Positions 34,742 through 57,275 of a stretch of DNA of 64,000 nt are shown one piece after another. Each line of letters opens with the position of its first letter. Positions within the stretch are counted from its first letter, which is position 1. A model generated the notes under the pieces. The model made no database searches and was not told where the DNA came from. It worked only from the letters and a program-made list of their open reading frames with translations. The stretch comes from Candidatus Atabeyarchaeum deiterrae (lineage in GTDB: Archaea > Asgardarchaeota > Atabeyarchaeia > Atabeyarchaeales > Atabeyarchaeaceae): the NCBI GenBank assembly GCA_037310415.1, contig CP147780.1, forward strand, positions 512,001-576,000, written 5' to 3'. The translations under genes were made by a program, and so were the position numbers.

Positions 34742-35956
34742 TCACCCGTACATTCCGTTGCATGAGTCACTTCCAGATGTGGAGTAACCTAATACCTTCG
34801 ACACAGCCTTCTCAAAATCAGCTTGCTGCACTTTGTGGCGAAACTCTCTAATTGCAAACATGCCTGATTCGGTACATATGGATTTAATGTCAGCCCCCGT
34901 CGCACCGTCAGTGATCTTCACCATATTATTAAAGTCAACATCGTCGGTCAGACTCATTCTCCTGGTGTGGATTCGGAATATCTCAAGACGCGCATTCTCA
35001 TCTGGAAACGGAAACTCAATTACGCGATCAAAACGTCCAGGGCGAAGAAGTGCTGGGTCTAGTATATCGGGACGATTAGTCGCTCCTATTACTCTTACGT
35101 CCCCACGAGCATCGAAGCCATCAAGTACGCTTAGTAACTGCATTAGGGTCCTTTGAACCTCTCGATCACCACTTGTTGCAACTTCAAGTCTCCTGCTTGC
35201 AACGGCGTCGATTTCGTCTATGAAGACAATACTAGGTGACTTTTCTCTGGCGAGTTGGAAAACTTCTCTCACCAACCGAGCACCTTCACCTATGAATTTC
35301 TGGACAAATTCCGAACCAATCACTCTTAGAAAGGTGGATTTTGTTTCTCTTGCAACAGCTCTCGCGACTAAAGTTTTTCCCGATCCTGGGGGACCGCACA
35401 ACAGTACGCCGTTAGGCGGATCTATTCCGATCTCTTCAAATGCCTCAGGGTGTGTGAGTGGAAGTTCAACGGTCTCTCTGATTTCTAGTATCTGCTCATT
35501 CAGTCCACCAATATCGTTGTAAGTAACGGGGGGAGATACTTCGACTTCCATGCTGCGAACAAAAGGATCTTTGGTCTGAGGTAGAATCTCAACTATCGAG
35601 AGAGTTCTTTGGTTCAGGGCGACCCTAGTACCTGGAAACAGCGCGTTCTTGGGGATGCTCTTCGACACATATACGACGAAGTTTGGACCAGTGGAGCTTT
35701 TTACTACTGCTCGTCCATCTTCCATTATGTCGGTTAATTGAGCAGCAATCAAGGGTGGCTGCCTTGCCTTTTCGATCTCGGTTCTAAGTGAGTGCAGTTC
35801 TCTTTCGAGTCTCGTTCTTTCAGCATCGACTAACTGTTTCTCAGTTTCAAGTGAACGAACTTTTCTTTCAAGGTGTCTTGTGTAAGAGGACAAATATGAT
35901 TCCTCAACGTTGTTGTAGACTCTTTTCTTGGAACCTGATTCTATCATGTCAGGCAA
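34742..35956 (-). CDS. pan: Proteasome-activating nucleotidase
   Basis: Coiled coil, [22 protein letters not shown], HbYX tail MYG; TTG start after GGAGG. Confidence 0.95.
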
Positions 35957-37980: not shown

Positions 37981-38089
37981 GGGCGGGTGATCTAGCCTGG
38001 TTATGATGCCGCGCTTACAACGCGGTAGAAGTTACTATCAAATAAAATAGCTTCCGCGAAAATCGCCGGTTCAAATCCGGCCCCGCCCA
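37981..38089 (+). tRNA. tRNA-Val(UAC) with a 34-nt intron at 44/45 (38027-38060)
   Basis: Acceptor GGGCGGG/CCCGCCC, anticodon arm CCGCG-CTTACAA-CGCGG, T arm GCCGG-TTCAAAT-CCGGC; BHB CGCG/CGCG with bulges GTA and AAA. Confidence 0.9.
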
Positions 38090-38415: not shown

Positions 38416-38520
38416 TGGCGCCGGGGACGGGATTTGAACCCGCGCGACCCGTAAGAGTCACGGGCTCTCCTGTACGGACTGACTCAAGGCCCGCGCCGTA
38501 GTCCGCTTGGCTACCCCGGC
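38416..38520 (-). tRNA. tRNA-Ser(UGA) with a canonical 16-nt intron (38467-38482); CCA encoded
   Basis: Class II cloverleaf with long variable arm; BHB CUUG/CAGG. Confidence 0.93.
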
Positions 38521-49692: not shown

Positions 49693-49907
49693 TGGCGGGC
49701 CCGAGGGGAATTTCGGCATATCCTCTTGTAATATGCTATCGAACCCCCGGCCACCGGGTTTCATTACGCTACCCTTGGATGGTTTGTTCTCTCTGGCATT
49801 AGTCGACGTTTAAAAGCCTCACCCTCTGAGGAGCAGTTCACTCCTCTAGAGTCCGGCGCTATAGGCAGACACTGTTTCTTCCTTCTACCTGACTGAGCTA
49901 CGGGCCC
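49693..49907 (-). tRNA. tRNA-Lys(UUU) with four introns (49861-49884, 49818-49852, 49760-49810, 49710-49737); CCA encoded
   Basis: Removing the four BHB-bounded segments gives GGGCCCGTAGCTCAGTCAGGTAGAGCGCCGGGCTTTTAACCCGGTGGCCGGGGGTTCGATTCCCCTCGGGCCCGCCA, a complete cloverleaf. Confidence 0.88.
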
Positions 49908-55150: not shown

Positions 55151-55406
55151 ACTCCTTCACTCTCCCGAGTCGAACGATATTACTGATGCTTTAACGCTAT
55201 CGGGAATGTAGATTTGATTCCGAATACCGTTAGGTGCAGCAATTTTGACTAATTTTCATAATATCCGCGCTTCAGATTAACCTAGCGGTATAAGTATGAG
55301 TTCGTGCCCTTTCCAATCCTCCACACATTCAAGCGGAAACAAAAGCTTGGAAGAAGAAGAGTCAATTTCAATAGACTCATTCTGACGGAAATTCTTATTT
55401 GGCATT

Positions 55407-55500
55407 GGTCGCCGAAAAAGAAGGCTGTAGGTCTGTAAGAACACAGACTTCCGCTTCTAGTCTTTTCGATAAGCGAGACTAATCAAGACCACACCTATGG
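55407..55500 (+). repeat. Island hairpin repeat, copy 4
   Basis: CTGTAGGTCTG pairs with CACACCTATGG; inner CGCTT/AAGCG, centre 55463.5. Confidence 0.78.
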
Positions 55501-55620
55501 TGGGCGAATGGCGATGATAACTGAACGCTCGGCTTCCCTGAATGCCTCGATCTCATGGCCGACGAAGGCTCAGAAAAAGATAAAAACTGTTTCAACCCCA
55601 GTATGAATCACGAATTGTGT

Positions 55621-55772
55621 GCCCTGGTGGTGCAAGCCTTCTCCGAAGGTCCGAAGAAGACCACGAAGCGGCTAACATTTGGGTCTGTCACACCCAAGAC
55701 GCGGGTTCGAGAAAGATCACCGCAATGCCTGCTGACGGCATACGATGATTTTATAAAATCCCGCCCAGGGCG
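55621..55772 (+). tRNA. tRNA-Asp(GUC) with two non-canonical introns (D arm ~55634-55665; T loop ~55712-55758)
   Basis: Acceptor GCCCTGG/CCAGGGC plus discriminator G, anticodon arm TGGGT-CTGTCAC-ACCCA, T stem GCGGG/CCCGC; exact junctions uncertain. Confidence 0.8.
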
Positions 55773-55880
55773 CTCCCTCCTTCTCTGGCTGTGGCTCTAA
55801 GCAAGCATCCTACGGATGAGTGGATAGAAGAGAGTGAAAACTGCGGTTAGAGGAATTGTCTTCTTCTCTTAGAGAAGGGC

Positions 55881-56849
55881 TCATCCTTCTTGCTGCTCAT
55901 TTCTTCCTCGGGATCTTGCTCTTGCCCAGTAGACTTTTGTCCAGTATCCCCGCTCTGGAACAGTGATACCAAGTTTCTTGCATTTTCTGCCCGTGGACTT
56001 GGTGTGTGAAACGTGGTATTTGACTGCGATTTGCCTCAATGGCATTTCCTGAACTAGTTTCTCCAAATCCTCCTTTGTGATTTTTCTCCATTCACGTTGA
56101 AGCATATTTCTTTTCCGAACCTGTTCAATCGTGCAATCCTCTTTAGCCCTCGACAACAATTCTTCTTGTTCGCAGGGGGACCAACGTTTTCTAGGCATAC
56201 TATTCGCGTAGTTCTTCATCATCTTGTTAAATAGTTCCGGACCCAGACACATCATGTAGTTGGTTCCATTTAGCTTTCTGCCGTAGATTTCTTTTTGGCG
56301 TTTGTCCACGTAGATCTTGTAGGGGAGATCGAATCTTTTCTTGACTTGTCCTAAGAAACGCTCGCTGCCTGATGAGATCATCGTCGTGTTTCGTCTTCCG
56401 TCGCCATCAAAGTATCCTAGGAGGAATGCGAGTTCTAGACTAGTGCGGGGTAGCTTGGGATACTCGATGGTTTTTGATTTTCTGAATTTAAGACCGTGTC
56501 TGATCAGGTCGTTGCCCACCTCCATACAGGTGAACCTGATCATTGCTTGCCTGTGTCCTGCCTCATCGGTCGGGTATTCCTTCTTGCTTTTATTGAGCTG
56601 TAGGGCATCGCAGAACTTGTCGATGGTGTCTTCGTCTCTTATTTTGAGCTTTAGCCGGATTTCTGCCCTATTTGGGTATTCCACTAGGTAGCCGTCAGCG
56701 TAGAGGAATCCGAGCCAGTATGCTTTCTCTTTGGTGTTGATTGTCTCGAAGAAGTTGATCTTTAGATTCGAATGTACTGTATGTGCCGCCCACACTTTGT
56801 ACCAATGCGCCGTTGAGGCGTTTCTATGAGGTTGTCTGAGCGTCTTCAT
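55881..56849 (-). CDS. Free-standing double-motif LAGLIDADG endonuclease with C-terminal HTH-like tail
   Basis: AYWLGFLYADG and LAFLLGYFDGDG; no intein splice motifs. Confidence 0.8.
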   Translation of the reverse strand: MKTLRQPHRNASTAHWYKVWAAHTVHSNLKINFFETINTKEKAYWLGFLYADGYLVEYPNRAEIRLKLKIRDEDTIDKFCDALQLNKSKKEYPTDEAGHRQAMIRFTCMEVGNDLIRHGLKFRKSKTIEYPKLPRTSLELAFLLGYFDGDGRRNTTMISSGSERFLGQVKKRFDLPYKIYVDKRQKEIYGRKLNGTNYMMCLGPELFNKMMKNYANSMPRKRWSPCEQEELLSRAKEDCTIEQVRKRNMLQREWRKITKEDLEKLVQEMPLRQIAVKYHVSHTKSTGRKCKKLGITVPERGYWTKVYWARARSRGRNEQQEG

Positions 56850-57170: not shown

Positions 57171-57275
57171 TGGCGGGCCCGGAGGGAATTGAACCCTCGA
57201 CCACCAGCTGGCTCCCCTGACGGGAAGAAGCAAGGTTAGGGGGCTGGCGCCCTATCCTGACTAGGCCACGGGCCC
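57171..57275 (-). tRNA. tRNA-Arg(CCU) with a canonical 27-nt intron (57210-57236); C at position 33; CCA encoded
   Basis: GGGCCCG acceptor, CCAGC-CCCCTA|A-GCTGG anticodon arm, GAGGG-TTCAATT-CCCTC T arm. Confidence 0.88.

Follow-up and report, generated by a model that had tools for sequence, protein, structure and literature searches.

The question raised by this locus is whether a tRNA gene, broken up by introns, lies under an 81-residue open reading frame near the end of the window (the whole 64,000-nucleotide stretch of DNA that was analysed), and if so, whether it is a working gene, whether the genome encodes this tRNA elsewhere, and how its introns would be removed. The genome is a single contig of 2,756,679 bp with a GC content of 46.6%. 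An earlier note, made from the letters alone, had described here a hidden tRNA-Asp(GUC) with one intron in the D-arm and a second at 59/60 in the T-loop, both with imperfect bulge-helix-bulge (BHB) motifs, and had offered a very relaxed endonuclease, stepwise nested splicing or a decaying gene as explanations. We find all elements of that description in the sequence, and conclude that window positions 55621–55772 are very probably the functional, and apparently the only, tRNA-Asp(GUC) gene of the wetland-soil Asgard archaeon Atabeyarchaeia-2, maturing by the pathway proposed below. The features of the locus, in window coordinates, are as follows.

55555..55800, + strand: spurious ORF of 81 aa with an ATG start, overlapping the tRNA-Asp gene
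55574..55586, + strand: putative promoter, an A-rich BRE/TATA-like box AAAAAGATAAAAA with its centre ~41 nt upstream of the mature 5' end
55621-55772, + strand: tRNA-Asp(GUC) gene, three exons of 14, 44 and 14 nt with two introns
55621..55634, + strand: exon 1, tRNA positions 1–14 (acceptor 5' strand, U8, G9, D-stem GUGC, A14)
55635..55667, + strand: intron 1, 33 nt, D-loop 14/15, relaxed HBh'-type motif
55634-55665, + strand: intron 1 in an alternative register, 32 nt, 13/14
55668..55711, + strand: exon 2, tRNA positions 15–59 (rest of the D-arm, anticodon arm, variable loop AGAC, T-stem 5' strand, UUCGAG)
55687-55689, + strand: anticodon GUC, within exon 2
55712..55758, + strand: intron 2, 47 nt, T-loop 59/60, BHB with a weak central helix
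55759..55772, + strand: exon 3, tRNA positions 60–73 (U60, T-stem 3' strand, acceptor 3' strand, discriminator G73), CCA not encoded

The interrupted gene and its predicted spliced product

Standard searches do not recognize the gene in its unspliced form. ARAGORN reports no tRNA within the window, and Rfam gives only noise and no tRNA match on 55300–56100, even at E-values up to 10; at the gathering threshold Rfam places two other tRNAs in the window and none at this locus. Once both inserts have been taken out, default ARAGORN identifies the sequence as tRNA-Asp(gtc), and does so for both of the D-arm junctions considered below (13/14 and 14/15), whereas the same splicing offsets applied to ~20,000 random windows of the genome gave not one tRNA call.

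Both strands of the 2.76-Mb genome were also searched with an intron-tolerant alignment scan, in which the whole query is aligned, inserts of 8–260 nt are allowed and the anticodon GUC is forced, using three compact tRNA-Asp genes from other Asgard genomes as queries. The top genome-wide match of all three ends exactly at genome position 567772, which is the 3' end of the gene at window 55772, with scores of 73.5–77 against a maximum of 53–59 in the reversed-genome control. The tRNA-Asp signal is well above chance. The runner-up of these scans, at genome position 669142, is a tRNA-Gly(CCC) with A73 and not a tRNA-Asp.

Removal of the inserts leaves a complete cloverleaf. Its acceptor stem has 7 bp (GCCCUGG/CCAGGGC, with G73 next to it at 55772), its D-arm has a C13-A22 mismatch in the stem, its anticodon arm reads UGGGU-CUGUCAC-ACCCA and the stem of its T-arm is GCGGG/CCCGC; with a cut at 14/15 the body is 72 nt before CCA. 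The Asp-type identity features of tRNA are G73, G34-U35-C36, C38 and G10-U25, and the spliced product carries each of these and aligns full-length with the compact Asgard tRNA-Asp genes. The precursor, too, folds at minimum free energy into a cloverleaf from which both introns project as side hairpins (z = -2.6).

The ORF at 55555–55800 covers the region, and the cloverleaf could in principle have arisen by chance inside a genuine protein-coding gene. We give this next to no credence: the ORF matched no Pfam family, the locus ranks first genome-wide for tRNA-Asp queries taken from other genomes, and the random windows described above yielded no tRNA. The orthologous regions moreover differ by a 20-nt indel and have divergent introns, so a conserved reading frame is incompatible with them and the ORF is spurious, as had been suspected. 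On the evidence of its sequence, 55621–55772 is confirmed as a real tRNA-Asp(GUC) gene with two predicted introns.

Copy number, orthologues and constraint

Published tables of tRNA genes (PMC11291895) list 43 tRNAs for Atabeyarchaeia-2, identified with tRNAscan-SE 2.0.12 and R2DT, and 40 for Atabeyarchaeia-1, and tRNA-Asp is absent from both. The 43-tRNA table describes the same genome as ours: the ARAGORN and Rfam tRNA coordinates are identical to those given for 'SRVP_Atabeyarchaeota_2_curated.FINAL' (Supplementary Data 4, PMC11291895), examples being 35441–35652, 243848–243938, 549981–550089 and 569275–569171. Our own searches agree on tRNA-Asp, with neither Rfam nor ARAGORN finding another one in the whole genome. 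With the locus masked and its own spliced sequence as query, the best score was 70.5 compared to 71 in the control, which is background, and blastn-short with this tRNA-Asp and three other tRNA-Asp sequences recovered only the three exons together with T-arm matches to other tRNAs. Intact GUC anticodon arms occur 51 times genome-wide, approximately the chance expectation, and just one of them, at the tRNA-Asp locus, has a T-arm at the right distance. These second-copy scans would miss a very divergent or trans-split tRNA-Asp gene; within their reach the locus appears to be the sole tRNA-Asp gene of a genome in which Asp codons make up 5.1% of the codons in long open frames.

The published Atabeyarchaeia-2 table also lacks Cys GCA, Ile GAU, Thr CGU and Ser CGA, and further tRNA genes of this genome are probably hidden likewise. 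Over the whole genome Rfam reports 17 tRNAs, and ARAGORN with introns allowed reports 21, many of them of the wrong isotype. The window itself contains four tRNA genes of the published table, two of which are reported by Rfam at the gathering threshold and none by default ARAGORN:

37981-38089, + strand: tRNA-Val UAC
38416-38520, - strand: tRNA-Ser UGA
49693-49907, - strand: tRNA-Lys UUU, with four introns
57171-57275, - strand: tRNA-Arg CCU

Between the convergent tRNA-Asp and tRNA-Arg(CCU) genes lies an ORF of 322 aa (window 55881–56849, - strand) that contains a LAGLIDADG_3 domain (E 2e-7). Its counterpart in the genome that we refer to as G002 is syntenic and 73% identical; in Atabeyarchaeia-1 (G001) only the C-terminal ~146 residues are present, as a 174-aa ORF.

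G001 and G002 are the other two genomes of the family, and both carry an orthologue of the tRNA-Asp gene:

L003:~1405-1574 (about 508.40–508.57 kb), - strand on L003: tRNA-Asp of G001
L002:~1505-1675, - strand: tRNA-Asp of G002

The tRNA-Arg CCU of G001 is at 507700–507804, matching the published Atabeyarchaeia-1 coordinates, which identifies G001 as that genome. In both relatives the two inserts occupy the same positions in the D-arm and the T-loop as in Atabeyarchaeia-2. The spliced 72-nt bodies of the relatives are identical to each other and differ from the Atabeyarchaeia-2 gene at five of 72 positions, none of which is in exon 1 or exon 3. Four of the five differences make up two compensatory pairs (28:42, G-C to A-U, and 26:44, U-A to C-G), and the fifth is D-loop position 20. 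Exon identity is 93–100% across two genera, compared to only 47–61% for the introns between genera. Pairing within the introns is nevertheless retained, with pairs 1 and 2 of the T-loop intron helix switching between A-U and G-C among the orthologues and the two relatives differing, U-A against C-G, at pair 2 of the D-loop intron helix, these covariation counts being small and drawn from three orthologues, two of which are close kin. In the upstream regions of the three orthologues the box at 55574–55586 is the sole conserved block, and its position and composition suggest that it is a putative promoter corresponding to the archaeal TATA element.

The earlier note had counted a decaying gene among its explanations, meaning a tRNA pseudogene with inserts that can no longer be spliced. 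Two observations lean that way: the central helix of the T-loop motif is weaker here (two of four pairs) than in the relatives (three of four), and tRNAscan-SE did not report the gene. A pseudogene would be expected to have relaxed exon constraint and a functional copy elsewhere, and we find neither; the exons remain alike and their changes are mostly compensatory, against a background of diverging introns, the promoter-like box is conserved, and no other tRNA-Asp gene was found to serve the Asp codons. We therefore consider decay very unlikely, and the pattern of conserved exons and diverged introns indicates purifying selection on the tRNA body.

A scan of metagenome contigs for further orthologues, using a 16-mer that runs from exon 1 into the beginning of intron 1, gave at least 119 hits; the remainder of the gene is missing from all of them, and they are therefore chance matches.

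The relatives also contain a third insert, of 20 nt, directly after C38 (38/39), which is absent from the Atabeyarchaeia-2 gene. Its central helix has four of four pairs (UGUC/GACA). The 38/39 intron of G002 starts with ACCUA, a repeat of the exon stem strand that follows the intron, and that of G001 starts with ACCCA, which is the sequence of the Atabeyarchaeia-2 exon at that place. These repeats could be the footprint of the origin of the intron, or of its loss in Atabeyarchaeia-2. An intron that is present in the relatives and absent here in either case marks a recent gain or loss.

Splice-site registers and motif strength

Splice sites were read with the standard geometry, in which the central helix has 4 bp, each bulge has 3 nt and cleavage follows the second nucleotide of the bulge; PMC4090602 describes a matching arrangement. 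The earlier note had placed a first insert of 32–34 nt at 12/13–13/14. There is a D-arm insert, but it is better placed at 14/15, where it is 33 nt long and extends from 55635 to 55667. In this register the central helix has three of four pairs (G10-C, U11-A, G12-C; GUG/CAC), and after a 5' bulge of CA|A the intron helix is in register, with six of seven pairs formed, including the one that covaries in the relatives; an outer exon helix is absent. The product keeps A14-G15-C16 and G15:C48, as does every compact Asgard tRNA-Asp retrieved, and apart from position 20, all of the D-loop variation among the orthologues falls inside the intron. Together these features point to 14/15 as the likely D-loop junction.

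GUGGU at gene positions 7–11 can indeed pair with ACCAC inside the first insert, as previously described, and in this register the same gene would lose a 32-nt D-arm intron (55634–55665) by a cut at 13/14, leaving a 73-nt body with the D-loop AAGCGGCUA and A15. The central helix UGGU/ACCA then has all four pairs in each of the three orthologous genes, with a U-G among them in G001, and ARAGORN accepts this product too. However, the intron helix is out of register with the 5' bulge, and A15 is opposite C48 in two of the three orthologues, whereas the compact Asgard tRNA-Asp genes all combine A14-G15-C16 with C48; moreover, it is with the 14/15 cut that the D-loop differences are confined to the intron in the manner described. 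We regard a cut at 13/14 as rather unlikely, and moderately favour 14/15. A further register at 12/13, with a 34-nt intron and GUGG/CCAC paired at four of four positions, was rejected; its product has no nucleotide between G12 and the D-loop, and A14 is displaced.

With the intron at 14/15, its location is also less unusual than the 'rare site' that had been suggested. Published introns of the same genome are found at 14/15 in tRNA-Leu GAG, and at 59/60, the position of intron 2, in tRNA-Leu UAA and tRNA-Gly UCC.

Nested splicing had been proposed on account of an internal CUUC/GAAG motif resembling a BHB, such that an inner intron would be removed first from the D-arm insert to create a proper BHB for the outer cut. 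The CUUC/GAAG pairings are present and these repeats permit several alternative hairpins, but they are part of an ordinary intron helix, and the relatives swap them for CUCAC/GUGAG while keeping the same simple intron hairpin. No inner site with four of four central pairs and a flanking helix occurs in intron 1, either here or in G002, and the single 9-nt inner candidate of G001 is in a non-homologous place; there is no inner BHB that creates an outer motif, and the orthologues share no such element. Given that a single-step HBh' reading fits other D-arm introns of the genome, we consider nested splicing highly improbable, and retain removal of intron 1 in a single step.

The second insert, of 47 nt at 59/60, is as the earlier note had it, with a good intron helix and two of four central pairs. 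A cut at 59/60 is the only one that restores the 7-nt loop UUCGAGU, and it does so consistently across the orthologues. The T stem, of 5 bp, serves as the outer helix. The bulges read AG|A and AA|U, all seven positions of the intron helix AAGAUCA/UGAUUUU are paired, and the two central pairs are U54-A and U55-A. Alternative T-loop cuts with four of four central pairs were rejected, as they leave T-loops of 11 to ~15 nt, which is the wrong length.

Neither intron has the strict hBHBh' motif, in line with the imperfect BHBs first noted. Intron 1 has three of four central pairs (four of four in the 13/14 register) and no outer exon helix, and intron 2 falls short in its central helix. Both instead belong to the relaxed HBh'/hBH class, with splice sites in bulges beside an in-register flanking helix, an assignment for which the argument rests on conservation among the orthologues and not on the motif.

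To place these motifs in context, the 59 published introns of Atabeyarchaeia-2 were scored by the same geometry rule. The central helix has four pairs in 43 of these, three in 12, two in one and one in three; a central helix with two or fewer pairs is thus found in four of 59, and intron 2 lies in this weakest tail. The published 59/60 introns (Leu UAA, Gly UCC) have four of four central pairs. Published D-arm introns resemble intron 1 in having no outer helix and a strong intron helix, with HBh' examples in Leu GAG (14/15), His GUG, and Ser GCU and Trp (both 15/16). Plausibly, the weak T-loop motif together with the 80 nt of insertions explains why tRNAscan-SE missed the gene.

Processing machinery and comparison with known systems

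The genome encodes two EndA paralogues, with PF01974 matches at two loci: genome 215530–216246 on the minus strand for the alpha subunit, and genome 625319–625915 on the plus strand for the beta subunit. The alpha subunit, of 238 aa, has its best PDB matches to 3p1z_B and 3ajv_B (~1e-46), which we take to be the catalytic subunit of the Aeropyrum pernix heterotetramer, and it keeps the Tyr/His/Lys triad, with the motifs YxxGPGIDHAPF and RKKF conserved; the lysine of its 'KP' loop aligns with chain residue 44. In the beta subunit, of 198 aa, the catalytic His is replaced by Thr/Ser, and there is a 7-residue gap at the loop. From these sequence features the endonuclease is predicted to be of the two-subunit (alpha2beta2) crenarchaeal type. 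RtcB (E 5e-175) and an archaeal CCA-adding enzyme are also encoded. Enzymes of the alpha2beta2 type are associated with lenient motif use (reviewed in PMC4090602), and two EndA paralogues are present in most Asgard genomes (Goswami et al., bioRxiv 10.64898/2026.10.13.758758). Of the three explanations offered at the outset, a very relaxed endonuclease is the sole one to find support, in a catalytic EndA encoded together with a His-less paralogue of a type linked to relaxed motifs.

We propose that transcription from the A-rich TATA-like box would give a precursor of ~152 nt plus a leader. The two-subunit tRNA-splicing endonuclease, with its catalytic alpha and His-less beta subunits, would remove the two protein-spliced introns, of 33 nt at 14/15 and 47 nt at 59/60, and RtcB would ligate the exons, which are 14, 44 and 14 nt long. 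The leader would be trimmed by RNase P, and the CCA-adding enzyme would add CCA to the 72-nt body. We infer that splicing takes place, and the gene would then be a natural substrate for probing the limits to which the bulge-helix-bulge rule can be relaxed. The sole tRNA-Asp would mature only if the endonuclease cuts a T-loop substrate that has two A-U central pairs and is positioned essentially by its flanking helices and bulge spacing, and if it also cuts a D-loop intron with no outer helix. It is conceivable, though doubtful at present, that the substrate range of the Atabeyarchaeia EndA is accordingly wider than that of any characterised archaeal endonuclease, or that ordered splicing or a helper is needed.

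The immediate consequence is for annotation. The published tRNA sets of both Atabeyarchaeia genomes are without an essential isoacceptor, tRNA-Asp, which the genes described here provide for Atabeyarchaeia-2 and Atabeyarchaeia-1, both of them complete Asgard reference genomes. Because whole disrupted genes go unseen, tRNA counts and statements of completeness for intron-rich archaea are underestimates.

Other heavily interrupted tRNA genes have been described from this lineage before. In Atabeyarchaeia and Freyarchaeia, 92–95% of tRNA genes contain introns; these are often at non-canonical positions, and a single gene often has several (Valentin-Alvarado et al. 2024, Nat Commun 15:6384, PMC11291895). 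The tRNA-Asp gene is an instance of the same phenomenon in the same genome, but differs from the published multi-intron genes in being absent from their table and in having a T-loop motif weaker than those of the published 59/60 introns. tRNAscan-SE has been reported to miss D-arm insertions in the Atabeyarchaeaceae systematically, with only ~1/3 of the missed insertions located at canonical BHB boundaries (Goswami et al., bioRxiv 10.64898/2026.10.13.758758). That census is limited to genes detected by tRNAscan-SE and does not see whole genes 'disrupted beyond recognition'; the tRNA-Asp gene appears to be one of these. What is new here is a tRNA-Asp gene absent from the published table, and with the general phenomenon already published the advance is an incremental one, an annotation correction for two reference Asgard genomes.

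The closest counterpart is the tRNA-Asp(GTC) of Freyarchaeia (1426998–1427132; G037, L006), which shares the isoacceptor, G73, the CUGUCAC loop and the presence of two introns, as well as a GUG...CAU D-stem with a mismatch at 13:22 (U13-U22 there, C13-A22 here). Its D-arm, however, is uninterrupted and both of its introns are 3' of the anticodon, such that neither shares a position with the D-loop intron described here, and tRNAscan-SE detects it with 72.7 bits, whereas the Atabeyarchaeia-2 gene is missed. Inserts occur at other D-arm places in further Asgard tRNA-Asp genes: in one family (f15; L148–L151) there is a ~30-nt insert near 20/21 and a second after the anticodon loop, and in another (f12; L133–L140), the genes of which failed a simple acceptor-stem filter, the insert is directly after G12. 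Such varied positions fit a history in which this tRNA gained inserts repeatedly and independently.

Outside the Asgard archaea the nearest parallel is with the multi-intron tRNAs of the Thermoproteales (Marck & Grosjean 2003; Sugahara et al. 2008; reviewed in PMC4090602). Their introns, like those predicted here, are protein-spliced, lie at non-canonical positions that include 59/60, have relaxed hBH/HBh' motifs and occur in hosts with alpha2beta2 endonucleases. The Thermoproteales belong to a different phylum, and tRNAscan-SE finds essentially all of their introns (bioRxiv 10.64898/2026.10.13.758758), whereas in Atabeyarchaeia-2 it is the whole gene that is missed.
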